A stretch of DNA of 64,000 nt, taken from positions 28,632 through 92,631 of the IMG/VR virus record IMGVR_UViG_3300021963_006415; one strand, given 5' to 3'. This DNA comes from a virus. The translations under genes were made by a program, and so were the position numbers. Positions 6,898 through 61,518 of the stretch are shown here, piece by piece. The notes beneath the pieces were generated by a model. The model was given only the letters and a program-made list of their open reading frames with translations. It searched no databases and was not told the DNA's origin. Numbering within the stretch: position 1 is the first letter of the stretch; every line of letters begins with the position of its first letter.

Positions 6898-8325
6898 TTA
6901 AATTAATACAGATAAGTGATGATATTTTTCTATATGTGTATCCCCAATTGTTTGATACAAACAGCTGTTTAATCCATCCTTTTTAGTATCATACAAATCT
7001 TGCTTTATCTCATTAAGAAATTTTATCTGATTTATTCTAGTTTCATTATGAACCCACTTTCCACTTTCCCAACTATTTGTTTTATGTGATAGCAATTTAA
7101 ATAAACCAACACGTCTATATGGTACATCTATTGTTTTACCCAATGATTCTTGTGATTTAATAAAATGAGAATTAAATACTTGTCCATCATTTTTATTAAA
7201 TGTTAAATCCATTATGTAATTATTTTTTACAAATTTAGAATCATAGTATAACATTAATTTTTCTGAAGAATTATATCCTCTAAAATTTTCTAATAAAGAG
7301 TTTTCCAAAGCGTTCTCTGAAAGTGTTTGTATTTCTTTTGGATTTAATATATCATTGAATATAGCAAACTCTGATATAATTCCTGAAAAATAATTTGGAT
7401 TACTTCTTTTAGGGTCTCCTACTCCTAAATAAAAATGTTGTTCTTTTGAATAATCTTTTAATTTTCCTTTATATAAAATTTCTTCTATCAATTCACCATC
7501 TTTATAAAACGAAATTGTTTTTTCTATGGCATTTATTACTAAAGCAATTTGTGTAAAATGGTTTGTAAGTATTTCTGAATTTATTGAAATACATTTGTTT
7601 TTATCATCCCAAATATCAACTTTATATCTTCTAAATGAATTAAAAGAAATATTAGTATCATATCCTGGTATGGAAAATGCAGTGAAATCATCATATTCAT
7701 TATTTGGGTTGGATACCAAATCATCTGGTTTAAAACTTATTAAGATAGTTCTATTTTTTGAGAAATCTAATAAATCTTTTTTTTCAATTTTAATATGTGA
7801 TTGTGAACCATCAAAATATAAACCATAAACATTTTTTATGTCATTTTTTCCAATTATTGTAGTGTCCAAAGGTAAGTTTTCCTTTTTACTTCTAAATAAA
7901 AGGTCATCATCTTCAAACCCCCATCCCCAATATAAATTAGAATACCCATTTATTTTTTCAAATGCTTCAATTGAAAACATGGTAACTCCGCCGAAATAAT
8001 CTTCGAATGATAGATTTTTTGATTTATCATTTTCTAATTCAAATTCTGTTGCTAAATGAAGTGGTATATCTGAATAAGAATAATCAACATCCAATGGAAT
8101 CATGTCCACATCGTGAAACACTACATAGTCGCATTCTAATTTTTTAGCTTCTAAAAACCCAACATTTAATAATTTTCCTCTATTAAATGGTTTTTTATCA
8201 GATTGCTCTACAACTATTAATTCGTATTCTATATTGTTGTTCAAAAGATAGGCTGGAACATTTTTTATAAACTTTTCTAAATGTTCTGGTCTATCTCTAT
8301 ATGGAACTATAACTCCTAATTTCAT
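6898..8325 (-). CDS. GT7 (beta-1,4-galactosyltransferase-like) with inserted LamG domain
   Basis: IVPYRDR, FNRGKLLNVGF, HDVD, YFGGV, INGYSNLYWGWGFEDDD, LamG insert, DGLNS. Confidence 0.88.
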   Translation of the reverse strand: MKLGVIVPYRDRPEHLEKFIKNVPAYLLNNNIEYELIVVEQSDKKPFNRGKLLNVGFLEAKKLECDYVVFHDVDMIPLDVDYSYSDIPLHLATEFELENDKSKNLSFEDYFGGVTMFSIEAFEKINGYSNLYWGWGFEDDDLLFRSKKENLPLDTTIIGKNDIKNVYGLYFDGSQSHIKIEKKDLLDFSKNRTILISFKPDDLVSNPNNEYDDFTAFSIPGYDTNISFNSFRRYKVDIWDDKNKCISINSEILTNHFTQIALVINAIEKTISFYKDGELIEEILYKGKLKDYSKEQHFYLGVGDPKRSNPNYFSGIISEFAIFNDILNPKEIQTLSENALENSLLENFRGYNSSEKLMLYYDSKFVKNNYIMDLTFNKNDGQVFNSHFIKSQESLGKTIDVPYRRVGLFKLLSHKTNSWESGKWVHNETRINQIKFLNEIKQDLYDTKKDGLNSCLYQTIGDTHIEKYHHLSVLI

Positions 8326-49736: not shown

Positions 49737-49815
49737 ATTCTATTTTTTAAGTTTTATTTTTAATCTTTTAGTGCTTATGTACTGTCTGCTTTAAAGTAAT
49801 AATAAAAAGATACCT

Positions 49816-49847
49816 CAAATATACAAAAATTTTTTCAAATTTCCAAA
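49816..49847 (-). promoter_or_regulatory. Bacteroidota-type promoter
   Basis: TTTG-N20-TATATTTG. Confidence 0.75.
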
Positions 49848-50171
49848 TTAATACAGGTCTTTTTTTGTTAAAATTTTATAAAGTATCTCTACTTCCTCTT
49901 CTGTGGTTAATTCGGGAAGGTCTTCATCGAATAATCGCATAGTATAAAGGGTAATACCCTCCTCCGATTCAAACTCTGTAGACTCGGATGACCATAATGA
50001 TGGTATTGATTCTAAATTATTTTCTAATTCTTGCTGTGATACATCGATAAGCGGTATGATGTAGTAATGGTAGGTATCTTCTAAATTTTCATCCTTTACT
50101 TCTAATTTAATGCAAGGATTCCACTTAGTAAAGCTAACGTCTGTTATCGGAGTTTCTGGTACAATTATCAT
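49848..50171 (-). CDS. Acidic hypothetical protein
   Basis: 107-aa ORF with its own promoter. Confidence 0.6.
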   Translation of the reverse strand: MIIVPETPITDVSFTKWNPCIKLEVKDENLEDTYHYYIIPLIDVSQQELENNLESIPSLWSSESTEFESEEGITLYTMRLFDEDLPELTTEEEVEILYKILTKKDLY

Positions 50172-50176
50172 AATAC

Positions 50177-50208
50177 CAAATATATGTAAAAAATTTTAAA
50201 ATAACAAA
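50177..50208 (-). promoter_or_regulatory. Bacteroidota-type promoter
   Basis: TTTG-N20-TATATTTG ending 5 nt before ATG 50171, so the mRNA may be leaderless. Confidence 0.75.
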
Positions 50209-50209
50209 T

Positions 50210-50899
50210 TTAAATTAGATTAAATAACTCTGGTCTTTTATTTTTTAGTTCATTTAATTGTTCTTTTGTTAAATCCATATGTGTAAAGTCTGTTTCTTTA
50301 CTAAATAAAAACTTAAATCCTTTTATATTTTTATAATTTAAAAATAAATCATATATAAAATTACGATAAACAATATCAGGTTTAAAATTATAAACACCTC
50401 TAATTTGATTTATAAATCCATCTTTAGATATAACAACAACAACTCTACTATAATTAGAATTATCTATATCATATTCTCTAAGCTCTAAAAAATTTTGATA
50501 TGAATTCACTCTTCCACAATTATTCATTCTAAAAACCATTTCGGAACTATAATAGCAATTCAAATCAACCCAATATAATCCTATATTGTTTTTTCTATAA
50601 TCAAACAAAATATTATTATTTTCTATATAATTTTTTGATGTGTAAACTAATTTATTATTAATAACCCAATCTTTGTATAATTCTATTATATCGTTAATAG
50701 ATAATAACTCTAAGCCACCATATTTACCATTATTAACAAAATCTATATAATTTACAATTGGATAAACTATATCCGATACATATTTTGTTGATTTATGTGA
50801 TAGAGATATATTATCCGATTCAATTTTTTTTATAACGAAATCAGAATGCCTGTCGAAATGCGTTTTAATGTATTCTATATTTCTTATTATAGATGCCAT
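50210..50899 (-). CDS. Hypothetical protein, PcfJ-like C-terminal motif
   Basis: E...MNNCG...LELR...QIRGVYNFKP. Confidence 0.4.
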   Translation of the reverse strand: MASIIRNIEYIKTHFDRHSDFVIKKIESDNISLSHKSTKYVSDIVYPIVNYIDFVNNGKYGGLELLSINDIIELYKDWVINNKLVYTSKNYIENNNILFDYRKNNIGLYWVDLNCYYSSEMVFRMNNCGRVNSYQNFLELREYDIDNSNYSRVVVVISKDGFINQIRGVYNFKPDIVYRNFIYDLFLNYKNIKGFKFLFSKETDFTHMDLTKEQLNELKNKRPELFNLI

Positions 50900-51558
50900 T
50901 ATATTATTTTTTTATTATCAATTAATGAGTATAAAAAATGTGCAAAATTTAAATGACCATTAAATGAAAAGTGTGTATCCTTTATTAAACCATTCGTATG
51001 CTTATATATTGTTTCAAATGATGCGTATAGCTCATCATCATCTTCTAAAGACCATATGTAGCAAAACTTAACTTTGGTTTCGCTTAATAATCTTTTTTTT
51101 ATAAAATCAAATCTTTTTTTGTGTCTGTTTTTATAAAAAATATCATTTGAAAAATAATATTGAAAATTTAATATTGTTTCTATTTTATCTTTATCATTTA
51201 TACAATCTTTGTTCAAAATATTTTTAGCACCTTCATATGCTGATAATATGTGATGTATGTTATCATCAATAGGAACATCAATTCTTCCATATAAGGTTGT
51301 ATTTATTATAACAATATCATTATTTTGGATGGAATCAAAATTATCAATTATACTATCGAATATGTAGTCATTAGAAGCTCCATTTTTTCCAAAATTTTTA
51401 ACATCATAATTTAATAAATTACCTAAATGATTTGGCCAAATATCATCACCTTTATTCTTATATAAAGAATACTTCACACTAACATCGGATTTACAATTTA
51501 TATTACAACCATGACCAAATGTCATAGAATCTCCAAAAGTCCAAAGCACAGTACTCAT
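50899..51558 (-). CDS. SGNH/GDSL-like hydrolase/acyltransferase
   Basis: FGDSMTFG, WP, GKNGASN, DTHFSFNGH. Confidence 0.8.
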   Translation of the reverse strand: MSTVLWTFGDSMTFGHGCNINCKSDVSVKYSLYKNKGDDIWPNHLGNLLNYDVKNFGKNGASNDYIFDSIIDNFDSIQNNDIVIINTTLYGRIDVPIDDNIHHILSAYEGAKNILNKDCINDKDKIETILNFQYYFSNDIFYKNRHKKRFDFIKKRLLSETKVKFCYIWSLEDDDELYASFETIYKHTNGLIKDTHFSFNGHLNFAHFLYSLIDNKKII

Positions 51559-52166
51559 ATGAATCTTTTAATATTTTTTTTACAAAATTGAACATCTATA
51601 TCATATCTTTTTAAACTCTTTTTAAATAATTGTATTTCTGATGAATTGATTATATCGAAATCATTTTCTTTTAAAAAATTTATTACATCATCTATATAAT
51701 TAAAACTATTTAAATATAAATCTTCAAATAAAGATACTTCTACCTTGCCTCTTTTTATTATTGATATTTTTTCTCCAAATGATTTTAAAATTTTAAAATC
51801 CTCACCTTGAGCATCGCAATGAAAATAATCTACATAATTAATTTTATTTTGATTTAAAAACGCATCCATTCTTATAACATCTACCAATATTTTATCTACA
51901 TACTTTATTTTACTATTTTGATTAGCAAATTGAGTTAATTGATTTAAAGAAGAAGATAATCCATCACTTGCTAAATTAAAAAAGGAAGTTCCGTTAAAAT
52001 CACTAACCGCTTTTTCTATTATATTAACATTCTTATATCTTTTAAATTTGTTTTTTAATAAATTAGCATATATTGGATTTGGTTCAAAACACCAAACGTT
52101 TGCATTATCTAAAAAACCAATTGTGTGGCTTCCATCATTAGAGCCTATTTCAATTATATTTTTCAT
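51555..52166 (-). CDS. FkbM family methyltransferase
   Basis: IEIGSNDG, FEPNP, AVSD, HCDAQGED. Confidence 0.85.
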   Translation of the reverse strand: MKNIIEIGSNDGSHTIGFLDNANVWCFEPNPIYANLLKNKFKRYKNVNIIEKAVSDFNGTSFFNLASDGLSSSLNQLTQFANQNSKIKYVDKILVDVIRMDAFLNQNKINYVDYFHCDAQGEDFKILKSFGEKISIIKRGKVEVSLFEDLYLNSFNYIDDVINFLKENDFDIINSSEIQLFKKSLKRYDIDVQFCKKNIKRFI

Positions 52167-52861
52167 ATCAGTTTTCCGGATTTAAATAAATGCCTATTCA
52201 ACATTTTTTCAGCCATATGATATACTCCATTTTTTTCTAAATTATCATAAGATGGGTTACTATCAAATAAATAATTAATATTATTAAAATATAAATTAAT
52301 GTATTGTTGATTTAATGTAATTGGTGGAACACCATTGTACCTTTCAATAAAAAAATCATAATTCTTGTCTATAATTTTCAACACATCAGAATAAGATTTA
52401 TTAACGTTTAAATAATCATTAGTCGCCACTATACACGTGTTATTTAATTCGTTAAATTTTAGAGGGATGTTAGAATAACGTTTATATATTTCAGTAAAAT
52501 GCTCTGTTTGGGTTTCACTTAAAGGATGTTTGTAACCTAAGTTCAGTTTATCACCATCTACGATGTTCATTAATTTACTAAAATCTTCAACTAATAAATC
52601 ATTATCTAAATGTATAAATGGAAAATCAATTGTGGATAATACTTTTAATTTAGGATATGACCATAACGCGTTTCGATTATATTTTTCATCTATCTCAAAT
52701 TTAATCCATTTATATTTTAGACCCACCTGTTCGAAATAATCTTTATCGGAATATATCAAAGGAATGATGTTTTGACTATTTAAATTTTCAATAGAGTATT
52801 TTAAATATATTTCAGTAGTTTGTTTAAGTCTAATTGGTAAATATGTAAATACAACTTGCAT
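52163..52861 (-). CDS. Putative nucleotide-diphospho-sugar transferase-like protein
   Basis: WSYPKL...PFIHLDND (DxD). Confidence 0.55.
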   Translation of the reverse strand: MQVVFTYLPIRLKQTTEIYLKYSIENLNSQNIIPLIYSDKDYFEQVGLKYKWIKFEIDEKYNRNALWSYPKLKVLSTIDFPFIHLDNDLLVEDFSKLMNIVDGDKLNLGYKHPLSETQTEHFTEIYKRYSNIPLKFNELNNTCIVATNDYLNVNKSYSDVLKIIDKNYDFFIERYNGVPPITLNQQYINLYFNNINYLFDSNPSYDNLEKNGVYHMAEKMLNRHLFKSGKLI

Positions 52862-54114
52862 TATAATAAAGATTTTTTAATTAAAAATTCAGTTTTCAAA
52901 CCTCCATCAATTATCAAATCCAATAATGAATTTTCATTTTCTATTTTATACATTAGTTTGTTATGTACCAAATCGGACCATTCTTTACATAATCTATAAT
53001 TTTCATCAAAATTATGTAAAAAATCTTTAATAAAACATGCAAACATTTTTGAGTTTGCTCTAAATTCCTTAGATTCTTTATAAAAAGGATGCGGTCTTAC
53101 ACCTAACATAGATTGAACTATATCTAACGGATAATTATGCGTTGAAACAAAAGGTATCGAAGCTAATAGCAAGCTTAATGTTTTTTCTGAAAGATATTGT
53201 GATGTAAAATCTCTATCACTCCAAGACCAACTTTCGCATAATATTTGCATTTTGGATTTTGGAAGAACTCTAAAAAATACATCCATATATCCTTGGTGAT
53301 TTGCTATATAACTAATATCATCAAAATCTTTTTCACCATATATAGAATTGGTTTTTATATGAGTTATTTTTGGAGAATACTTTTCATATGCTTGATTTTG
53401 TAAAGCATTTGTATGTTGTAAATACAACCTATCATTTTTTAATTTACTTAATTCATTTATAATATTAATTCTGTTTATTTTATGATTCTTAATACTGTAC
53501 ATTAAATCATAATCAAAGTTTAATTTATCATATACTTGCTTAAACTCATAATACCATCTAACATTCCAATTTGTATTCCATTGAAATATTGTGTTTGTTA
53601 ATACATAATAAAAATTTGGGTACTGCTGTTTTATCGATTCGTTTAAAAAAAAATTATCTGTAATTATATGATGCTGACTCAATTGAGATATCAAAGATTC
53701 TATTTCTAACCATTTTTCATCAAAGTAATTAACATCTTTAGTTTGTAATATTTTTTCAGTTCTAAAATATGTTATTATCCATTTTTGATTTTTTGGACAA
53801 TTTTTTAATAAATTTATAAATATTTTTAAAATTTGTTGAGTTTCTCTTTCCATATACTGCATATCTGGCAGAATAGCACCTATTTTTGGGTCATTTTTCC
53901 CATATGAAAATGCCGCAAAATAATCTAATATATGGATACCATCTTCTTCAAAACTCATCTCTTGCTTAAAAATGAATTCTAATTTTGTATTATTGTACTT
54001 ACAAAATATACTTCCCTCATTATTATCTTTTATATCAAAGATTCTATTTGTAGTATTATGCGCTAATTTATAAAAAATAGATTTATTATAATAATGATGT
54101 ATGTATATTTTCAT
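52861..54114 (-). CDS. Hypothetical protein, glycosyltransferase-like C-terminus
   Basis: ILCES...YLSEKT...IPFV motif typical of GT-B-like phage proteins. Confidence 0.4.
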   Translation of the reverse strand: MKIYIHHYYNKSIFYKLAHNTTNRIFDIKDNNEGSIFCKYNNTKLEFIFKQEMSFEEDGIHILDYFAAFSYGKNDPKIGAILPDMQYMERETQQILKIFINLLKNCPKNQKWIITYFRTEKILQTKDVNYFDEKWLEIESLISQLSQHHIITDNFFLNESIKQQYPNFYYVLTNTIFQWNTNWNVRWYYEFKQVYDKLNFDYDLMYSIKNHKINRINIINELSKLKNDRLYLQHTNALQNQAYEKYSPKITHIKTNSIYGEKDFDDISYIANHQGYMDVFFRVLPKSKMQILCESWSWSDRDFTSQYLSEKTLSLLLASIPFVSTHNYPLDIVQSMLGVRPHPFYKESKEFRANSKMFACFIKDFLHNFDENYRLCKEWSDLVHNKLMYKIENENSLLDLIIDGGLKTEFLIKKSLL

Positions 54115-54725
54115 TAAATTAAATTATTTAAAATATTAGAATATGCAGATTCATTTATTCCCATTTTTTTCAATATTTCATTTGCTATATAGTAATGGCC
54201 TTTTACATTTGGGTGCCCAATCGAATCTATTGAATATTTATTTTTTATCATATGTTCTTTATTAATTAATAAAGATTTATCCCAATTTATTTCCGAATAT
54301 ACTGATAAATTTTTTACGCTAATATCTAAATCCATATAATTAAAAAAGAAATAATTAATTTTATTATTTTCTAAAAAATTTTGTAATAAGAACATATAAT
54401 GTAAAGTGTGTTTACTAGCCATAGGTTCAAATTTTGGAAATAATTCAGTCCAATCGTAAGGAGTAACTAAACGTTCACTTCCATCAATATCACAATGAGT
54501 TCTTCTAGATGGTCCGGACCATTGTAATATTACTAAATCTGGATTAGATTTTAATTTTAGTAAATCTTCTAACGCAGTATGCAATATCCAATCATTGCCA
54601 ACGCTACATTTTGAAGAATTTGTAATATCACAATTAAAATAACTTTTTAATAATGATGGATATGAATTTTGTTTATTTACCCCATAACCATAAGTAACTG
54701 AACATCCAATAGAATAAATAAACAT
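54114..54725 (-). CDS. SGNH/GDSL-like protein
   Basis: IGCSVTYG, GND, QWSGPSR, GHPNVKGH. Confidence 0.75.
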   Translation of the reverse strand: MFIYSIGCSVTYGYGVNKQNSYPSLLKSYFNCDITNSSKCSVGNDWILHTALEDLLKLKSNPDLVILQWSGPSRRTHCDIDGSERLVTPYDWTELFPKFEPMASKHTLHYMFLLQNFLENNKINYFFFNYMDLDISVKNLSVYSEINWDKSLLINKEHMIKNKYSIDSIGHPNVKGHYYIANEILKKMGINESAYSNILNNLI

Positions 54726-54727
54726 TT

Positions 54728-55216
54728 TTAAATTAATTTAGATTCTTCATTTTTAATTCTTAAACGATTATAACTATTTATATCAAATAAATTTTCATAG
54801 TATTGAATTTCAATATTTAATATCTTTGATAGTGTTTCTATTTCTTTAATCCATTTAAAGATATCACTTGTGCATAAATCTATAATATTTTTTGGCGGTT
54901 GTTTATAGCAATATTTATTATTAGAATTATACCCCTCTACTTTTGAAAAATAAGTTTGATATGAATGAGATTCTATCAACTCTTTTAAATTTTTTCTACT
55001 TAAAAGTATAACTTCATCAAATGATTTTGCTAATTCTAAATTATTGGGGTGGTGAGAAATTATCGTTTTAACAACTGAATTATTTTGATTATTATAAATA
55101 ACTCTATTAGTTCCATCAAATGGTTCAAAGAATGGTTTTAAATTTTTTTCATTTGCCAACCTATACATCAAAGATGTTGAGCCTGTTCTTGGTAAGGCTA
55201 TTATTAATATTTTCAT
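54728..55216 (-). CDS. Sulfotransferase-like (P-loop) protein
   Basis: IALPRTGSTSL (5'-PSB), FEPF, LSRKN...S, YYE. Confidence 0.7.
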   Translation of the reverse strand: MKILIIALPRTGSTSLMYRLANEKNLKPFFEPFDGTNRVIYNNQNNSVVKTIISHHPNNLELAKSFDEVILLSRKNLKELIESHSYQTYFSKVEGYNSNNKYCYKQPPKNIIDLCTSDIFKWIKEIETLSKILNIEIQYYENLFDINSYNRLRIKNEESKLI

Positions 55217-55776
55217 AAAAAAGATTTTTCTTTTTTCATAGGTATAAATCTATTTTCTTCCTCCGATAACCAAATATTTAAAGCATATCGTTCACCTTTG
55301 GTCACAGGCAAAACACCGTGAAAAATTTCATTTCCTATAAAAGATATACCATCTCCTTTAGAAAGTTTTATAAGTTTTATATTATTTAAATTTTCAAAAT
55401 GATAGTTGTTACTAACCTTATTTGTTATAGCAAATCTTCCATCTTCATACTCATCATTTAAAGTTATAACAATTGTTAAAGAACTACTGGAATCTTTATG
55501 TAAATTTAAATATCTTCCATCATAGTATGCAGTTAAACTTACGTTTATACTTTTTACTTTTAAAGATTCAAAATCCATCCATAAATTCCAATCCCCCGCT
55601 TTATATTTACTTTCTAATATTTTATATACTTTTAGCTTCAATTCCTCATCATAAATTCTTCTACAATCCCAATTTTCATTTGGATTATAATTAAATGGTA
55701 CTCCTATTTCTAATGCTTTTTTTAGAAAATAAGAACATTCATCATCATTAAAAAAATTATTTATTGTATAGTTCAT
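55213..55776 (-). CDS. 2OG-Fe(II) oxygenase
   Basis: LHKD...LNDEYEDG...HGVLPVTKGERY. Confidence 0.88.
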   Translation of the reverse strand: MNYTINNFFNDDECSYFLKKALEIGVPFNYNPNENWDCRRIYDEELKLKVYKILESKYKAGDWNLWMDFESLKVKSINVSLTAYYDGRYLNLHKDSSSSLTIVITLNDEYEDGRFAITNKVSNNYHFENLNNIKLIKLSKGDGISFIGNEIFHGVLPVTKGERYALNIWLSEEENRFIPMKKEKSFL

Positions 55777-56591
55777 ATTAGATGTGATTTTTTTACTGCA
55801 TCGTAATTTAATAAATTATTATTATCTATGAAACTAAATAATTCATCCGCAATAAATTTATATCCATTACTATTTGGGTGTTTACCCACAATATCCGACC
55901 AAGACTCATTATCTTCCCATACATCATTTTGTTTAGTATCTATTAGTAAGTCAGCCATTGTTTTGGTTTGATAACCCCAATATCGATTGATACCTATTAA
56001 ATTGGTTTTATTAATCAATGTATCTATATTTTTACTAATCATAGTATCAAACGCATCACAAAAAAGATATCTAATTCCTAACTCTTTGAACATAAACTGA
56101 AGATGAAGAATATAGTTTTGATTCACTATATCGTAGTATGCATCATTAAATAAATTAGCTATGTAGTAATTTCTAAAATTTTTCTCTGCTTTGTTATATT
56201 TTACACTATCTCCACTTATTCCATCAAATATATTTTTAAAAATATGTCCCTTACTTTTATATCGTTTACCCCATATAAAAAAATCATCTTCATTGTGAAA
56301 AAAAGGTAAGGGGTCTCTTAACGATGATGACCACATAACAACAACAAAATCATCTTTGGTGATAATTTCATTTTTCAGTTGATAAAAAATTGTATTAAAT
56401 ATTGCATTATTTGAGAAACCACCAACTCCATTATTTTTAACCTCACAACCAAGCGATTCAGACAGGTATTTTGGCCAACAATATTTTTGTCTTATTTTTG
56501 TTTTTTCTTCGGGAATATTGGTAGTATCTTCTTCTCTAATATTCCCACCAACTCCTTCTGTCCAGCTATCACCATATGTAAATAATTTCAT
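55773..56591 (-). CDS. SGNH/GDSL-like protein
   Basis: YGDSWTEG, WP, GGFSN, KHPNSNGY. Confidence 0.78.
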   Translation of the reverse strand: MKLFTYGDSWTEGVGGNIREEDTTNIPEEKTKIRQKYCWPKYLSESLGCEVKNNGVGGFSNNAIFNTIFYQLKNEIITKDDFVVVMWSSSLRDPLPFFHNEDDFFIWGKRYKSKGHIFKNIFDGISGDSVKYNKAEKNFRNYYIANLFNDAYYDIVNQNYILHLQFMFKELGIRYLFCDAFDTMISKNIDTLINKTNLIGINRYWGYQTKTMADLLIDTKQNDVWEDNESWSDIVGKHPNSNGYKFIADELFSFIDNNNLLNYDAVKKSHLI

Positions 56592-56594
56592 ACA

Positions 56595-57335
56595 CTATAT
56601 GATTGATAAGTTATTTTTAATAGAACCATCAATATACTTATTAACAAACTCTACTAACTCCGGTGTTCTCTTTACTTTAGAAGTTATTGAATTTTGATTT
56701 ACATGCATTAATTTAAAATCAACATTAAATTTATTAGACATATATGATTCAAATTCATACAATTTATCAAAATCAAATGTTTTAACTTTTACTCTATCGT
56801 TTAGAATCCAATGATATTGTGATGATAATCCAAATGTGTGAATTTGAAATCTATCATTGAACGCCTCATTAGTCAAATATTTTTGCTTAAACCCTAAATC
56901 GATTAATAATTTTTCAAAGAAAGATTTTCTAATATCTTGAGAGGAATAAATGTTTGTATATTCCGAATAGTTTTTTTTAATAAAATCAATTACAAACGAA
57001 TTATCTATATTTGTTAAATGATAAATAGTTTCTTCATCCGGATGTAGTTCACACATACCAGCTATAAAAAATCTCCAAGCGGATATAAACCTATCGGTAG
57101 AATCTCTTATTATTGAAACAAATTCAAAATCAGAACCAAAGCTAGCTATTAAAGAATGAAGTTTAGAATGTATGTGATTTCTTTTATTTTTCATTCTGAT
57201 ATTAGACCTAATCGAATTTTCCCATAAAGTATTTGGGAACTTTAAATCAAAACCATAAAATATACAGGATTCCTCTACAGACCAAGAAGCATTTTTAGGT
57301 ATTGGAATAAATGCAACTTTATCATTTATAATCAT
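56595..57335 (-). CDS. Sulfotransferase family 2-like protein
   Basis: FIPIPKNASWSV, H, IIRDSTDRFISAW (3'-PB), HVN. Confidence 0.78.
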   Translation of the reverse strand: MIINDKVAFIPIPKNASWSVEESCIFYGFDLKFPNTLWENSIRSNIRMKNKRNHIHSKLHSLIASFGSDFEFVSIIRDSTDRFISAWRFFIAGMCELHPDEETIYHLTNIDNSFVIDFIKKNYSEYTNIYSSQDIRKSFFEKLLIDLGFKQKYLTNEAFNDRFQIHTFGLSSQYHWILNDRVKVKTFDFDKLYEFESYMSNKFNVDFKLMHVNQNSITSKVKRTPELVEFVNKYIDGSIKNNLSII

Positions 57336-57336
57336 A

Positions 57337-57888
57337 TTAAATTAAACTTTTTGCGTTTTTAATTTTATTTTTTATTTGAAACCCCAAACTTAAAGTTATT
57401 CTAGGTTTATCACCAATAACAGGCGTAGAACCATGCATTACTTTTCCCGCAACACACCTCCAAACCATTTTTTCTTTAAGCTCGTTTATTTTTCCATTAT
57501 AAATTGAATGACCGCCTTCGTTTGGATACGATATTATTACATTATATCTAATGTGTGTATAACCTTCTAAATTTGGGTCACTATGTAGATGGATATTACC
57601 GCCGGCTTTATTTATACCAATACCATCTTCAAAATTTGGTTCTGTAACCCATTCATTAATTTTTTCTAAATTTATTATTCTATTTTTTATAGAACTAACT
57701 AACTCAAATATATTAGTATGAAATTCTTTTATAACCAAATACTTTCTAGAACCATATGGTGATGATTTTGATTCATTTACAGGAAAAATAAACTCATTTT
57801 CTTTTATCCAATTTAAAAAAGTTAATTGTTCACTATCGGATATAAAGTTTTCATACCCATATGTATCATATAGCTCGACTCGATTCAT
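57337..57888 (-). CDS. 2OG-Fe(II) oxygenase
   Basis: HLHSD...RYNV...EGG...HGSTPV...RITLSLG. Confidence 0.8.
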   Translation of the reverse strand: MNRVELYDTYGYENFISDSEQLTFLNWIKENEFIFPVNESKSSPYGSRKYLVIKEFHTNIFELVSSIKNRIINLEKINEWVTEPNFEDGIGINKAGGNIHLHSDPNLEGYTHIRYNVIISYPNEGGHSIYNGKINELKEKMVWRCVAGKVMHGSTPVIGDKPRITLSLGFQIKNKIKNAKSLI

Positions 57889-57908
57889 AACTAATTAAAT
57901 TAAATTAT

Positions 57909-58025
57909 TTATTGAGTAACATCCGTATATATAATAGATGCAACTTCTTGCATTATAGTTGCTATGCTAGAATTTGTAGATGAGCTTGTTAATACTACTT
58001 CTGATGATATGATTTTTGGTTTCAT
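57909..58025 (-). CDS. 38-aa Ser/Thr-rich peptide (unannotated)
   Basis: Manual translation MKPKIISSEVVLTSSSTNSSIATIMQEVASIIYTDVTQ; fills the gap between 58044 and 57888. Confidence 0.65.
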   Translation of the reverse strand: MKPKIISSEVVLTSSSTNSSIATIMQEVASIIYTDVTQ

Positions 58026-58043
58026 TTTATTAAATTATTTATA

Positions 58044-59573
58044 TTATAGTTTAGGTATTGGGCCATAGCAAAAAGAGCAACTATTACAGTAATAATAAGC
58101 ACATGAGCTCGTCCAACACCAACCATAGCATGGATTGTGTTGGATAAACGATAATCCTAAATTTTCATCTGCTAAAGGTAAAAACAAATCATTCTCTTCC
58201 ACATCTATATCATATACTTTTCTATTTGCATATACCACTTCTAAATTTGTTATTTTAGATTTAACCAATGTATTATTATTATAATCATAAAACACAATGG
58301 AATCATTTACTCTAAATTCATTTGTATGAGAGAAAATTGTTCTAAGAGTATCATATTCTTCTATTAACATATCACTATGTGGCAAATCTTCATAAATCAA
58401 CCCATTTTCTAGAGTTACTTTTATCATTAAAGATTCCTTAGTTTCACTAACTAAATTAACTATTGTAGTGCCTGTTATACCAAACGTAGTTAAATCTTCG
58501 GCAAAACTTCCAGAATTTACAGTTGGTATATACAATGGTTCGCCTGTTTCCGATATATCATTTGCCGGCACCCAAGGTAATGTAACTGTTTTTAAAACAT
58601 CATTTTCAAGTACTTGATTCGGAAATTTCATTGAACCATCTGCGTATAATATCTTAGTATCATCATCAAAAATGTATGAAATACCCATTCTTTGGTTAGG
58701 CGATTTACTAATCCATAAAGGTCTTGCTTCCTGATTCATTAAACCATTAGAATTATATAATGTATCCCAACTATTAGCTTTAATAGGTGATGTCATTATA
58801 TATGAACCCAAATGTAAACAATTTAATGTAGAACCATATATAATATCTAAACTTCTGATAACACCCATTTTTTCTTCAACCACATTATCAGTATTTGAGT
58901 GAAACTCTTCTAAATACTCTAAAGATGTTAACGAAGCTTTTAATGTTGCTAAATCTTCTAAAGAATTTACTTTATATAATTTTGGATATTGTACATAATC
59001 CGTATTTGGATATCTAGTCTTTACAATATAGTTTGGAGCATCTCCATCTGTTAAATGTAATTCTATCAAATTATCTACATTAAGACTTGTATCGGTTGAT
59101 GAGTTATAATATATTTTTGTTGAAAAAGATTGATTAGAAACTGCTCTATGAAAATTCACTTTATCTTTTGCATAACTTTCATCAATAATAGCTGTTGTAT
59201 CATATGATGTTCTTAATATTAAAGTATCATCTGCATCTTCTACATATGGAACTGTTATTGAATTTTTTGCAACTTCATATGCGGTAAATGTACCACCAAT
59301 TTCGTTTGCAACCTCTTCCAATTTATCTTTTAAAGTTAGTTTTGGAATATGCGTATCGAATCTTGTGGCTCTTTCTGTATTTATGAAATTACCATCTGTA
59401 TAAATAAAATGTAATTTAGATATAGAGTTATCTATTAAAAATTGTTTAAAAGATACCCAATCTAAATCAGGCACAATTATATTATGCACATCTACATTAG
59501 TATTTGTTTCTACAATTTTTAAGTTACCATTGTTATCTTTAACAAAGTCAGTTCCAATTATTACGGCTTTCAT
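58044..59573 (-). CDS. Circularly permuted ATP-grasp-like ligase + Hint domain + C-terminal six-Cys peptide
   Basis: GTDF...KIVETNTN, NYIVK, YLEEF; Hint IFDDDTKILYADGS...VYDIDVE...HN; tail PCYGWCWTSSCAYYYCNSCSFCYGPIPKL. Confidence 0.75.
   Translation of the reverse strand: MKAVIIGTDFVKDNNGNLKIVETNTNVDVHNIIVPDLDWVSFKQFLIDNSISKLHFIYTDGNFINTERATRFDTHIPKLTLKDKLEEVANEIGGTFTAYEVAKNSITVPYVEDADDTLILRTSYDTTAIIDESYAKDKVNFHRAVSNQSFSTKIYYNSSTDTSLNVDNLIELHLTDGDAPNYIVKTRYPNTDYVQYPKLYKVNSLEDLATLKASLTSLEYLEEFHSNTDNVVEEKMGVIRSLDIIYGSTLNCLHLGSYIMTSPIKANSWDTLYNSNGLMNQEARPLWISKSPNQRMGISYIFDDDTKILYADGSMKFPNQVLENDVLKTVTLPWVPANDISETGEPLYIPTVNSGSFAEDLTTFGITGTTIVNLVSETKESLMIKVTLENGLIYEDLPHSDMLIEEYDTLRTIFSHTNEFRVNDSIVFYDYNNNTLVKSKITNLEVVYANRKVYDIDVEENDLFLPLADENLGLSFIQHNPCYGWCWTSSCAYYYCNSCSFCYGPIPKL
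58134..58673 (-). other. Hint (intein-like) domain, residues ~301-480
   Basis: Block A xFxxxTxIxxADGSxK, block F KVYDIDVE, terminal His-Asn; no endonuclease motifs. Confidence 0.8.
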
Positions 59574-59590
59574 CAGTTATTTCTTTTTGT

Positions 59591-59599
59591 TATAAATAT
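59591..59599 (-). promoter_or_regulatory. Putative late-promoter motif ATATTTATA
   Basis: 17 nt upstream of the ATP-grasp-Hint ATG. Confidence 0.6.
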
Positions 59600-59606
59600 T
59601 AATATT

Positions 59607-60242
59607 TTAAATTAAACTTACTTTTTCTTTTACATATTCAAACCCAACATTACCGGCTATTACTATTCTATCTTTAGTAGAATTAGGCGAATTATTTGGA
59701 GAATGCTCTAATGTTCCATCCATAACAATCAGGTCACATACTTCCGGCATTATATAATATCTTTTACCTTCTTTACCCCCAATAATCAATGTACCCTCAT
59801 TGTTTTCTAAATTATCAGGCATCTGCAAATAATATACAAATGTGTAATTTGGATAAAACAATCCATCTTTTTTTTGTAAATCTACATGATTATGTAGGGA
59901 TACTTCCTCATTTTTTTTGAAATTAGTTTGTTTTGGTTTTCCCTTTCTAACAACATTTATCCAACACCCAAATTTGATTATATTAAAATTCATTTTATTC
60001 GTTTTTGCTAAAGATGCACATTCCGCTAAACAAAGTTTTACAGCTTGCTCCATAAAATTATTTGGAATAAAATCTTTTTCTAAATCAAAAAAGTCGCCAC
60101 CGAAAAAAGAATAATTATCCCTCCTTGCATAACTATTTATTAGATAATCTTCACATTCTTTTAAAACTAATTTTTGAAAATCATATGAATCTATTTTTGT
60201 CTTATAGACAAATATCCCATCTTCAAACGTAATTTTTTCCAT
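59607..60242 (-). CDS. Putative 2OG-Fe(II) oxygenase
   Basis: WINV...LHNH...FVYYL...EHSP...DRIVIAGN. Confidence 0.75.
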   Translation of the reverse strand: MEKITFEDGIFVYKTKIDSYDFQKLVLKECEDYLINSYARRDNYSFFGGDFFDLEKDFIPNNFMEQAVKLCLAECASLAKTNKMNFNIIKFGCWINVVRKGKPKQTNFKKNEEVSLHNHVDLQKKDGLFYPNYTFVYYLQMPDNLENNEGTLIIGGKEGKRYYIMPEVCDLIVMDGTLEHSPNNSPNSTKDRIVIAGNVGFEYVKEKVSLI

Positions 60243-60244
60243 AT

Positions 60245-60541
60245 CTAAATAGTTGTTTTTTGTTTTTTACTTTTTAAGGTAAGAGATTTTACATATGGCT
60301 CTTCCACTATATTCCATTTATCCAATGGACAACTACCATATTGGTCTGTAAATATTTTTTTTGATAGAGGACATCCACACTTACCACATAAAGCAGACCA
60401 TTTTTTATTATGAATTATTTCCTTACGCATATCACATCCCATACAAATATTCAGCCTAAGTTCTGCTAATTCTTTTTGCATTTTATTTGGGTTTTCTGCT
60501 GTTACCCAAGCTTTTAATATTTCTATTAAATCAAATCCCAT
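60245..60541 (-). CDS. Small Cys-rich metal-binding protein
   Basis: RLNICMGC...CGKCGC...CPLDKW. Confidence 0.7.
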   Translation of the reverse strand: MGFDLIEILKAWVTAENPNKMQKELAELRLNICMGCDMRKEIIHNKKWSALCGKCGCPLSKKIFTDQYGSCPLDKWNIVEEPYVKSLTLKSKKQKTTI

Positions 60542-60542
60542 T

Positions 60543-61103
60543 TTATAATAAAGTTTTTTTAATATTTTTTATTTGTTTTAATTTCAACCAATTTACTAAA
60601 GAGTATCTTATACCTGAAGTTATTGGTTTAACCCTATGTACCACTTCCGAAGGAAATATAAATAGATTTCCTACTCCTTTTTCTAATGTAATTTCTTTAT
60701 TTGTTAAAAGTTGAAACTCACCATCCATATATTCATCATTCAATTGCAGGACTATTGTATAAAATCTATCTTTAAATACCGTATCATTTGAATCGGCATG
60801 CCAATCAAAGAAATCGCCTTTTTCATATTTTGTAAACTGAAAGGTATCCAAAGATGGTTCATATCCTTTTATATTCTCAACATGCTCTTTGACTTTATCT
60901 AAAATTTTATTACCCACTATTCCAATATCTTCTACAAAAGAAACCTTAGATTTTCTCGTTTCTTTTTTTCTTTGAATATTATCAGGGTGATATACTTCCG
61001 CATTACTTAATTCCGAATCAATGTTATAATTGTTTATCAACAAATCACACTCATCCTTTTCTAAAAATTTCGGAATAGTTAGTATTTTATAATCATTTTG
61101 CAT
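60543..61103 (-). CDS. 2OG-Fe(II) oxygenase (prolyl hydroxylase-like)
   Basis: RKS, FQFTKY, WHAD, LNDEYMDGE, FPS..HRVKPITSGIRYSLV. Confidence 0.9.
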   Translation of the reverse strand: MQNDYKILTIPKFLEKDECDLLINNYNIDSELSNAEVYHPDNIQRKKETRKSKVSFVEDIGIVGNKILDKVKEHVENIKGYEPSLDTFQFTKYEKGDFFDWHADSNDTVFKDRFYTIVLQLNDEYMDGEFQLLTNKEITLEKGVGNLFIFPSEVVHRVKPITSGIRYSLVNWLKLKQIKNIKKTLL

Positions 61104-61104
61104 A

Positions 61105-61407
61105 TTATAACTTATTTTTTATAGAATGTAATTTAGCACATTCTTCGTACATCTCTAATTCAGTTAACCTATTCATCAACCATTTACCCATAGAATTAAA
61201 ATCCTCTCTCTTTAGAGTTATATATGCTGGCATAGATTTATACTTAATCAGTATTATTTCCCTACACTTACGATTTGATTTCCAGTTATCCAACTTATCA
61301 ACCAATTCTGAAAGGTTTTGTTTAGATAATCTAGTCTTAGGAAGATATGTTTTCCACTCCAAAGATATCCATCCCTTTTCCAATTTATCTAAGACTGTAA
61401 TATTCAT
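61105..61407 (-). CDS. Hypothetical protein
   Basis: 100-aa ORF with C-terminal EMYEECAKL. Confidence 0.6.
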   Translation of the reverse strand: MNITVLDKLEKGWISLEWKTYLPKTRLSKQNLSELVDKLDNWKSNRKCREIILIKYKSMPAYITLKREDFNSMGKWLMNRLTELEMYEECAKLHSIKNKL

Positions 61408-61412
61408 AACCT

Positions 61413-61444
61413 ACAATATACTAATAATTATTGAAATTTACAAA
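61413..61444 (-). promoter_or_regulatory. Bacteroidota-type promoter (variant)
   Basis: TTTG-N20-TATATTGT just upstream of ATG 61407. Confidence 0.55.
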
Positions 61445-61518
61445 TTTATTTTTGGGGGTGGGGGTAGGGGGCCCGGTCGTTTTTAAAAAAGAAAATTTTT
61501 TGTTATCCCTATTGATAG

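Follow-up and report, generated by a model that had tools for sequence, protein, structure and literature searches.

The question raised by this locus is why a phage protein of 509 residues should end in a 29-residue peptide carrying six cysteines, and whether this peptide leaves the protein as a separate product. The window, i.e., the whole stretch of 64,000 nucleotides that was analyzed, spans positions 28,632 to 92,631 of the IMG/VR record IMGVR_UViG_3300021963_006415, and the coordinates given below refer to it. The source contig is a T4-like myovirus of 92.6 kb with a GC content of 30%.

Anatomy of the Gene

Translation of the minus strand of 58044–59573 yields an open reading frame (ORF) of 509 amino acids, the C-terminal 29 residues of which are exactly the peptide that the initial annotation had described as six-Cys, aromatic-rich and devoid of Asp and Glu. 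Its composition and coordinates were likewise confirmed. The peptide is encoded by 29 codons at 58047–58133 on the minus strand, with the stop codon at 58044–58046. The six Cys are spaced C-x3-C-x4-C-x4-C-x2-C-x2-C and are accompanied by five Tyr, two Trp, one Phe and one Lys, with zero Asp or Glu. Throughout the 92.6-kb contig, at least five Cys per 35 residues are found in two real-gene stretches only (real genes being judged by eye from the ORF list): this tail and a neighboring 98-amino acid protein. An overlapping ORF in an alternative frame (58022–58126), the product of which would be hydrophobic, was rejected as it contains a stop codon in locus L001. The gene is divided as follows:

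58686–59573, minus strand: predicted circularly permuted ATP-grasp-like amide-ligase domain, residues 1–296 (AF2 model, structure comparison, invariant residues)
58134–58676, minus strand: predicted Hint domain, residues 300–480 (Foldseek, structure comparison, invariant residues)
58134–58139, minus strand: His479-Asn480, predicted site of Asn cyclization and C-terminal cleavage (conservation, intein alignment)
58047–58133, minus strand: six-Cys peptide, residues 481–509, at the C-extein (+1) position of the Hint domain
58047–58052, minus strand: terminal Lys508-Leu509, the conserved Lys-hydrophobic C-terminus (tail alignment, S74 variants, island tag)

The peptide alone had zero matches in Pfam, and its best score against the ESM Atlas (0.80) lies in the noise range. 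The whole protein (P0001) matched no Pfam family at E ≤0.01, neither a Hint nor an ATP-grasp model, and no PHROG, structural families included. A sequence-profile search of the PDB returned chance nanobody matches only (E >0.1). The tail has a pLDDT below 50 in the AF2 model and thus no confident structure.

Distribution of the Family and Evolution of the Tail

The same layout recurs in 152 homologues, on 178 IMG/VR viral contigs and in 438 clusters at 50% identity. This rules out a frameshift or assembly error, which had been named among the findings that would refute the peptide. As both the architecture and the Cys scaffold are seen in independent assemblies from many samples, the broader suspicion of an artefact, chance extension of the ORF included, has a negligible likelihood. 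No family match was obtained among GenBank phages (50,697; tblastn and megablast), no relative was present in GTDB at one genome per species (185,579 species), and no paper on this layout was found in the literature. The family has been met solely among viral sequences and does not appear to have been described before.

All 151 unique short tails contain at least six Cys, with seven in 14 of them. Each also has a Lys within its last four residues, in last or penultimate position in 146 cases; in a distant clade, with a Hint domain ending in Glu-His-Asn, the terminal Lys is mostly missing. Cys makes up 20.5% of the tails versus 0.4% of the bodies, a 50-fold enrichment that holds family-wide, and Trp is enriched 8-fold in tails. 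The Cys frameworks vary by clade (3-4-4-2-2, 1-4-3-4-2, 4-6-5-2-4), with a CxxC pair in each. Within the framework of the window’s peptide there are zero invariant non-Cys positions, and positions are kept in aromatic class alone. The suggestion that Tyr, Trp, Pro and Asn residues serve as tailoring sites is therefore not supported.

The comparison of tails among homologues, which had been recommended as a check, revealed a retained six-Cys scaffold with hypervariable loops: the Cys codons and their flanks are conserved and the sequence between them is not. Over 10 independent close pairs, pN is 0.099 in the tail versus 0.017 in the body, approximately six times the non-synonymous change. The corresponding pN/pS values are 0.47 and 0.17, the pooled tail being below 1 and so short of formal positive selection. 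Between loci L002 and L003, there are 20 changes in the 87 nucleotides of the tail versus 30 in the approximately 1440 nucleotides of the body. Part of this variation looks like cassette exchange. A diversity-generating retroelement was considered and rejected; the substitutions are not adenine-specific, and no reverse transcriptase was noticed among the ORFs looked over. Taken as a sequence pattern, the conserved scaffold and hypervariable loops support the type of evolution that would be expected of disulfide-rich effector peptides.

The Hint Domain and the Predicted Cleavage Site

Foldseek assigns residues 300–480 to a Hint fold with a probability of 1.00 (E 7e-8 to 2e-7). In the VIA structure comparison, the best match is the NpuDnaB intein (4o1r), with a Z of 15.6 and an rmsd of 2.2 Å over 139/142 residues, followed closely by Tetrahymena BIL2 (Z 15.5) and the C. 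thermocellum BIL (Z 15.2). Inteins, BILs and Hedgehog match this region at Z 14–15.6, and 112 chains reach a Z of at least 8. On the modelled fold, residues 300–480 are placed in the Hint superfamily (intein / BIL / Hedgehog / PT-HINT). The first-to-last residues of inteins map onto 300–480, the terminal intein Asn being aligned with Asn480 and residue 1 with Tyr300.

His479, Asn480 and Asp462 (block F) are invariant in a 47-sequence alignment (A1) in which identity falls as low as 31%. The residues required for splicing are replaced. Position 1 is not the Cys, Ser or Thr nucleophile of a splicing intein but Tyr300, which is invariant in the alignment; one locus has Phe. The +1 residue of the C-extein, for which splicing requires Cys, Ser or Thr, is Pro in the window’s protein, and across the 151 tails it is Ala in 35, Ser in 30, Gly in 28, Pro in 25, Leu in 9 and others in the remainder. 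The first Cys of the tails sits 1–4 residues off this position. In place of the Thr-x-x-His of block B, Thr387 is invariant and is followed at +3 by Asn, Asp or Gly, with no conserved His. As this His is missing and the block F His of inteins is replaced by Asp462, the cleavage chemistry would be non-canonical. With Tyr at position 1 and His-Asn retained, the domain could only cyclize Asn480.

These findings support the earlier view of the peptide as a discrete cargo, placed at the +1 position of a Hint domain by Foldseek and structure comparison, and the domain with its His-Asn most likely frees it. The proposed head-to-tail closure on the first Pro did not stand, since the variability of the +1 residue means that Pro is not a conserved closure partner. 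Pro is a poor leaving partner in C-terminal cleavage by inteins. Most relatives carry Ala, Ser or Gly at +1, where the window’s protein has Pro.

The N-Terminal Ligase-Like Domain

The N-domain is modelled by AF2 with a pLDDT of 84. Its best 10 structure matches in the PDB are ATP-grasp ligases throughout, with moderate Z values (9.3–7.4), and they span residues 1–292: YgiC (9.3), GspS (9.1), eukaryotic glutathione synthetases (8.2–7.5) and Cp1B (7.4). The strand order is permuted, as the unpermuted RimK, LysX and TTL align only from approximately residue 50 onward. In family alignments, D9, E22, N24, K185, K212 and R240 vary little or not at all, with Asp9, Glu22 and Asn24 forming a D...ExN motif at the N-terminus. 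Sequence-profile support for ATP-grasp membership is confined to a RimK match (E 0.017) in 2 of 40 N-domains. From the model and its moderate Z values, the predicted fold of residues 1–296 is that of the circularly permuted ATP-grasp amide ligases typified by glutathionylspermidine synthetase and YgiC.

Along the full length of the N-domain, the structures that match best are GspS, E. coli YgiC/YjfC and eukaryotic glutathione synthetase (Z 9.3–7.5), and their metal-binding D...ExN strand likewise comes first in sequence. The chemistry of these ligases joins the terminal carboxylate of a peptide to an amine. Unlike the present protein, which resembles them at moderate Z and without a profile match, none of them has a Hint domain or a substrate-like peptide of its own. 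The initial annotation had proposed that an ATP-grasp enzyme activates a carboxylate of the peptide, and the predicted similarity to amide ligases acting on peptide terminal carboxylates is consistent with this. It had also argued that, lacking acidic side chains, the peptide could be activated at its C-terminal carboxylate alone. This reasoning holds at the level of the family: Asp or Glu occurs in 100 of 151 tails and at zero conserved positions, so that the C-terminal carboxylate and the Lys present in every tail are the sole conserved handles.

Variants Downstream of His-Asn

The core (residues 1–480) is conserved in the 438 clusters, and the sequence after His-Asn is polymorphic. It may be a Cys-rich peptide of 21–70 amino acids, a Cys peptide followed by Peptidase_S74, a Cys peptide followed by a second Hint domain starting with Cys, tandem canonical Hint domains, or other sequence of up to 539 amino acids. 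As far as sequence can indicate, a conserved core with swapped cargo is the logic of a putative releasing domain.

Peptidase_S74, a self-cleaving domain, follows the Cys module in approximately 15 homologues and is absent from the window’s protein. The PF13884 profile matches P0167 and P0150 with 25.3 and 23.2 bits (cut-off 22), and P0021 with 13.8 bits, below the cut-off. Position 1 of the S74 profile is a Ser directly after the conserved Lys (Lys-Ser), or after Lys-Pro in some forms, e.g., P0021. On the predicted cuts, the peptide of these variants would be freed at both ends and would finish in Lys or Lys-Pro. Many short forms likewise finish in Lys.

Variants of 650 amino acids consist of a first Hint domain, a Cys peptide ending in Gly-Gly-Gly, and a second Hint domain starting with Cys. 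Of the 29 second- or tandem-Hint variants listed, approximately 19 end in His-Asn with a Lys immediately behind it, or with a few further residues that include Lys or Lys-Lys. The PF07591 profile matches the extra Hint domains of distant relatives (P0238, P0243 and others), not P0001.

Gene Neighborhood and the Island Tag

Gene context was compared across 80 viral loci, from IMG/VR only. The following neighbors are relevant:

57909–58025, minus strand: ORF of 38 amino acids, conserved companion directly downstream (78/80 loci)
60245–60541, minus strand: six-Cys protein of 98 amino acids, CxxC...CxxCxCP...C, the most tightly linked neighbor (71/80 loci)
50210–61407, minus strand: co-oriented island of enzyme genes with a common C-terminal tag (Pfam/PHROG matches, synteny in 80 loci)

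Across the 80 loci, the fusion gene is accompanied by the small ORF, by the six-Cys protein and by enzymes bearing the tag. The small ORF, which encodes 37–52 amino acids with a common helix motif, follows the fusion gene in 78 of them. In L002 and L003, the tails of which differ at no fewer than eight residues, this ORF is almost identical. Its reading as an immunity protein was rejected in that form, since it stays conserved next to a varying tail. The gene of the 98-amino acid protein usually lies directly upstream of the fusion gene or within about 300 bases downstream of it. Cys33, 36, 52, 55, 57 and 71 of this protein are invariant, and it has a weak match to DUF6171 (E 0.002).

The island contains 2OG-Fe(II) oxygenases, a sulfotransferase-like protein, SGNH/DUF6071, an FkbM methyltransferase and DUF6734; no exporter or protease gene was seen within it. 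The tag, K-[S/T]-[L/I]-[I/L] at the C-terminus, is present in its strict form in 10 of 17 island ORFs versus 2 of 69 elsewhere (Fisher p 3e-7), the former counted within 49800–61450 and so including the untagged ORF at 49848–50171. Homologues of every island family retain it. The tag is unlikely to be a by-product of translational coupling at AT-rich gene ends, because the 69 ORFs outside the island are equally packed and so rarely carry the tag. Judging by the motif, the Lys-Leu end of the peptide would be better explained as a short form of this island-wide tag.

Proposed Mechanism

The proposed scheme starts from the observed anatomy, folds, conservation pattern, cargo polymorphism and synteny, and from these predicts the cleavage and the disulfide or metal folding, together with ligation or tailoring, if any, and a biological target. 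The favored explanation, with a probability of roughly 0.55, is that the peptide is a cargo released by Asn cyclization, its Lys-hydrophobic end acting as a handle for the fused ligase or for a docking partner, with the chemistry being predicted. The ATP-grasp ligase, Hint domain and peptide would form one chain, a self-processing phage protein of single turnover. The Hint domain would cyclize Asn480 and break the Asn480-Pro481 bond, freeing a peptide of approximately 3 kDa with Pro481 at its start. The six invariant Cys would hold this as a small knot through three disulfides or a bound metal. The loops between them appear to evolve fast and episodically, as would be expected of contact with a variable partner such as the host, a competitor or a defense component. 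Past the sixth Cys, a flexible Gly/Pro-rich arm would present the conserved Lys-hydrophobic C-terminus. This end may be recognized by the fused ligase, which would be of the clade joining a peptide terminal carboxylate to an amine. Alternatively, it may be read by whatever recognizes the related tag that the island enzymes carry. Several observations count against release: Pro at +1 in the window’s protein, the altered block B and block F residues, the low pLDDT of the tail, the tails with seven Cys, a pooled tail pN/pS below 1, an island in which neither exporter nor protease gene was seen, and the missing match to Pfam Hint or ATP-grasp models.

Should release occur, this would be a protease-free route to small cysteine-knot peptides, with a self-cutting precursor that carries its own ligase. 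That the loops diversify at several times the pace of the remaining gene points to an arms-race role in phage–host or phage–phage conflict, and the conserved terminal Lys together with the common island tag leads to a specific hypothesis of ligation or docking. The 438-cluster family would supply a natural scaffold library for peptide engineering, as well as a natural C-cleaving Hint domain tolerant of many +1 residues.

Alternative Explanations

The explanation by cargo release can be extended, and release need not be excluded, if the peptide is a conjugation tag whose C-terminal end is joined to another molecule with or without release of the N-terminus. This is rather unlikely. Bond formation would use either the terminal carboxylate or the epsilon-amine of the conserved Lys, and might couple the peptide to one of the tagged island proteins, to a protein of the virion or the host, or to a polyamine. 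Short forms would rely for this on the fused ATP-grasp domain, long forms on a second Hint domain of the BIL2 type. The N-domain fold is that of enzymes joining a peptide terminal carboxylate to an amine, Lys occurs in every short tail, and the island enzymes carry a Lys-containing tag. The 650-amino acid variants follow the arrangement seen in the Tetrahymena BUBL loci (BIL-Ubl-BIL), BIL2 (6y75) ranks among the top structural matches, and Lys or a short Lys-containing stretch follows the final His-Asn in most of the second- or tandem-Hint variants listed. BIL2 splices to the epsilon-amine of Lys and thereby forms an isopeptide bond (PMC8616854). However, the ATP-grasp domain is retained in the forms with a second Hint domain, so that one does not simply stand in for the other; the Glu-His-Asn clade mostly lacks the terminal Lys, and hypervariable loops are unusual in a generic tag. 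The full scheme would be a hypervariable virus-encoded conjugation module, in which a crippled Hint domain frees the N-terminus and the Lys-hydrophobic C-terminus then becomes attached to proteins or amines through an amide or isopeptide linkage. In short forms the cis ligase would drive this step with ATP; in long forms a second Hint domain similar to BIL2 would do so without ATP. The targets may include the tagged island enzymes. This scheme is quite doubtful; if true, a Cys knot, a ligase and an intein relic would together make up a tagging system resembling ubiquitin.

It is also unlikely that the tail remains uncleaved and serves the ligase as a C-terminal domain with a regulatory or structural role, its six Cys binding Zn (e.g., Zn2Cys6-like) or an Fe-S cluster and its His-Asn being structural. 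The protein is made in the cytoplasm, where six-Cys modules bind metal more commonly than they form disulfides. Each framework has a CxxC pair, the adjoining partner protein also has six invariant Cys in CxxC-type motifs, and the tail is left unmodelled by AF2, as is often the case with metal-dependent folds. The odd Cys number of the 14 tails with seven counts against a disulfide knot. Set against this, Cys spacing that varies by clade and hypervariable loops would be unusual at a fixed metal site, and unrelated cargo can take the place of the module, or a second self-cleaving domain can bracket it. Moreover, His-Asn and Asp462 are invariant despite the loss of the splicing residues. A Cys-rich stretch at the distal tip of a trimeric, fibre-like virion protein would fit both the S74 intramolecular-chaperone domain present behind the Cys module of some homologues and the wealth of tail and baseplate genes on the contig. 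This is very improbable, as the N-terminal 480 residues are an enzyme fold and a Hint domain with no fibre, and the gene lies in the enzyme island and not among the structural genes, with no structural match in PHROGs.

Comparison with Known Systems

Conotoxins, defensins and knottins likewise combine an invariant Cys framework with fast-evolving loops, and have no sequence homology to the window’s tail. RiPPs with large leaders or fused enzymes (NHLP leaders, BURP-domain cyclases) likewise have a core fused to a large protein, whether leader or enzyme, and adjoining candidate tailoring enzymes; sequence homology is again absent. The RiPP-like context here consists of synteny with oxygenases, a sulfotransferase-like protein and hydrolases only. 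In the RiPP literature, release through Asn cyclization by a Hint domain was found described for no class.

The Pretoxin-HINT domain (PF07591) of bacterial polymorphic toxins also has a conserved part on its N-terminal side and, on its C-terminal side, a polymorphic cargo that it presumably releases; a small gene follows directly. In contrast, the N-terminal part here is a predicted ATP-grasp ligase, not a secretion or RHS module, and the cargo is a putative Cys knot of 26–39 amino acids, not a toxin domain. The small ORF is conserved without co-variation with the cargo, and the setting is a phage, not a bacterium.

BIL domains and the Tetrahymena BUBL loci (PDB 2lwy, 6y75) share the same fold (Z 15.2–15.5) and perform autoprocessing instead of true splicing, and the Hint-payload-Hint layout of BUBL loci is common to the 650-amino acid relatives. 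The present system differs in that the payload is a Cys-rich peptide and not a ubiquitin fold, and in that a predicted ATP-dependent ligase is present in cis. The window’s Hint domain also lacks Cys at position 1, so that no thioester can form.

Organization of the fusion gene and its contig

The 29-residue six-Cys peptide proposed in the initial annotation is, on translation, exactly the C-terminal 29 residues (481-509) of a longer open reading frame (ORF), the fusion gene:

58044-59573, minus strand: fusion-gene ORF of 509 residues

This tail has the cysteine pattern C-x3-C-x4-C-x4-C-x2-C-x2-C and lacks acidic residues; its aromatic residues are five Tyr, two Trp and one Phe, and it has a single Lys. 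The contig (92.6 kb, GC 30%) is a T4-like myovirus, with genes that include a long tail fibre, an SbcCD-like nuclease, a carbamoyltransferase and a baseplate wedge of ~40% identity to its counterparts in Flavobacterium phage immuto and Microcystis phage Mel-JY01. Among the contig stretches assigned to real genes (by eye, from the ORF list), only the tail and an adjoining 98-aa protein reach at least 5 Cys per 35 residues. A 34-aa hydrophobic ORF lying over the tail in an alternative frame (58022-58126, minus strand) is probably no gene, as a stop codon falls within it in the 97% relative L001.

Ligase and Hint domains

Pfam and PHROG profiles do not match any portion of the 509-residue protein. 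An AlphaFold2 model of the full protein, built from 47 homologues, has a mean pLDDT of 85.5, with values below 50 confined to residues 484-509, leaving the tail unmodelled. The ligase domain (residues 1-296) was also modelled separately (pLDDT 84). When it was compared with 48,161 chains, the ten best structural matches were without exception circularly permuted ATP-grasp amide ligases, including YgiC (Z 9.3), glutathionylspermidine synthetase (9.1), eukaryotic glutathione synthetases (8.2-7.5) and Cp1B (7.4); alignment to the unpermuted RimK, LysX and TTL begins only at about residue 50. Asp9, Glu22 and Asn24 at the extreme N-terminus, Lys185 and Arg240 are invariant. Cp1B is a ligase of the E-64 pathway that forms amides (PMC12568646).

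Structure comparison of the model identifies residues 300-480 as a Hint domain, which matches the NpuDnaB intein (Z 15.6, rmsd 2.2 A over 139 residues), Tetrahymena BIL2 (Z 15.5), the Clostridium thermocellum BIL (Z 15.2) and Hedgehog (Z 14.6-14.7). In the structural match Tyr300 is the counterpart of intein residue 1 and Asn480 of the terminal Asn; both are invariant in the alignment, as are Thr387, Asp462 and His479. Blocks B and F are non-canonical. In the alignment, Cys, Ser or Thr is absent from position 1, block B lacks its His and +1 offers no nucleophile; the domain is therefore unable to splice. It retains the requirements for a predicted C-terminal cleavage. The peptide starts at the +1 position, which in the window protein is Pro, a residue unfavourable to such cleavage. 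Tyr300 and Asp303, the latter at +3 (together 58665-58676, minus strand), are both strictly conserved despite the loss of the nucleophile.

Conservation and diversification of the tail

The fusion-protein family comprises 152 homologues (90% clustering), 178 IMG/VR contigs and 438 clusters (50% identity); members were found neither among 50,697 GenBank phages nor in 185,579 GTDB species genomes. The comparison of tails among homologues suggested in the initial annotation bears out the cysteine framework, with at least six Cys in all 151 unique short tails of 26-39 residues (six in 133, seven in 14, eight in 4). Lys lies within the final four residues of every one, and is last or penultimate in 146 of the 151. 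Cysteine spacing depends on the clade (3-4-4-2-2, 1-4-3-4-2, 4-6-5-2-4) and the +1 residue varies (A, S, G, P, others). The 33 tails of the window's own framework have no invariant non-Cys position. They retain aromatic-class positions (Trp before Cys2, Trp/Tyr before Cys4, Phe/Trp before Cys6) and a Gly- or Pro-rich arm that leads from Cys6 to a Lys-hydrophobic end.

The tail differs between the window and L001 by seven non-synonymous changes and a single synonymous one; its dN is 0.105, that of the body 0.010-0.014. Loci L002 and L003 have near-identical bodies and 20 changes within the 87 nt of the tail; these fall on loop codons, with the Cys codons, flanks and downstream ORF conserved. 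Over ten independent close pairs, pN is 0.099 in the tail against 0.017 in the body. The tail thus undergoes accelerated, scaffold-constrained diversification, its pN/pS of 0.47 (body 0.17) being below 1 and short of formal proof of positive selection. Divergence is uneven, with bursts of change in some phage pairs and none in others, which suggests episodic change or cassette exchange between phages. In the comparisons L028/L030, L051/L066 against L052/L060, and L002/L003, diverged bodies with identical tails are seen, as is the converse; in the converse pairs, bodies are near-identical and a quarter of tail nucleotides differ.

Cargo of the relatives

Other relatives carry different cargo after His-Asn: longer Cys-rich segments, or unrelated sequence of up to 539 residues. 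The releasing Hint domains of polymorphic toxins likewise combine a conserved core with swappable cargo. In a further type, a Peptidase_S74 domain comes after the Cys peptide. Its profile begins at a Ser that immediately follows the conserved Lys in most forms and is preceded by Lys-Pro in some (e.g., P0021). Given this start, self-cleavage would leave Lys or Lys-Pro at the end of the peptide.

In another type the Cys peptide ends in a Gly run and is followed by a second, canonical Hint domain that starts with Cys and ends in His-Asn and a short Lys-Lys-containing stretch. Relatives of 650 aa (P0090, P0092, P0096, P0097, P0126, others) have a canonical mini-Hint (PF14890) between the post-Cys6 Gly run and the short Lys-Lys-containing end; as its +1 residue is Val or Met, they are unable to splice canonically. 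Distant relatives (P0218, P0225, P0238, P0240, P0243, others) have canonical Hint domains arrayed in tandem, two or three per protein, right after the core His-Asn, and about two thirds of these relatives end in His-Asn-Lys or have Lys shortly after. The Hint-payload-Hint layout resembles the BUBL loci of Tetrahymena (BIL-Ubl-BIL), where BIL2 carries out splicing to the epsilon-amine of a Lys (PMC8616854, section 2.4).

Neighbouring genes and the island tag

Synteny was sampled over 80 viral loci. Two small ORFs flank the fusion gene:

60245-60541, minus strand: 98-aa protein in which six Cys are invariant (C33-x2-C36, C52-x2-C55-x-C57-P, C71), with a weak match to DUF6171
57909-58025, minus strand: 38-aa ORF that begins 18 nt past the fusion gene

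The 98-aa protein is the tightest-linked neighbour (71 of 80 loci); most clades have its gene immediately upstream of the fusion gene, others no more than ~300 bases downstream of it. Other fixed partners include several 2OG-Fe(II) oxygenases, a sulfotransferase-like protein and SGNH/DUF6071 proteins. An ORF of 37-52 aa lies 3′ of the fusion gene in 78 of 80 loci, with a common C-terminal helix motif (I-A-T-I-M/F-Q-x-V). It is conserved where the tail varies and has no C-terminal tag.

Nearly all products of the co-oriented enzyme island (50210-61407, minus strand) end in K-[S/T/K]-[L/I]-[I/L]. Defined strictly as Lys/Arg, 0-3 residues and two C-terminal aliphatic residues, this tag occurs in 10 of 17 island ORFs vs. 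2 of 69 elsewhere in the contig (Fisher p 3e-7). Homologues of every island family, at 30-50% identity, retain it; in the same check it was absent from flanking non-island families. It is similar to C-termini of the class I PDZ type or those recognised by proteases, and the K-[L/I/V] end of the peptide looks like a short form of the tag.

Proposed function of the peptide

The favoured reading, at a probability of about 0.55, is that cyclisation of Asn480 frees the peptide as a six-Cys knot, the cleavage being predicted. Its loops would contact a variable partner, and its Lys-hydrophobic end may act as a handle for the fused ligase or for a reader of the island tag. A version of this reading in which the peptide is a conjugation tag is conceivable, if doubtful. 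It may also stay attached as an uncleaved metal-binding module, which we consider unlikely. A role of the peptide at a fibre tip is very improbable; that a tail shared by so many homologues is an artefact is scarcely credible.

Hint-released cargo, permuted ATP-grasp ligases and Cys-framework peptides are each already known separately. Their union in a phage was not found in the profile libraries or literature, and here it also comprises the invariant terminal Lys and the island-wide tag. Far from the island, the ORFs at 1519-2364 and 6898-8325 (both minus strand) end in …KSII and …SVLI, respectively, and may be further tagged proteins.
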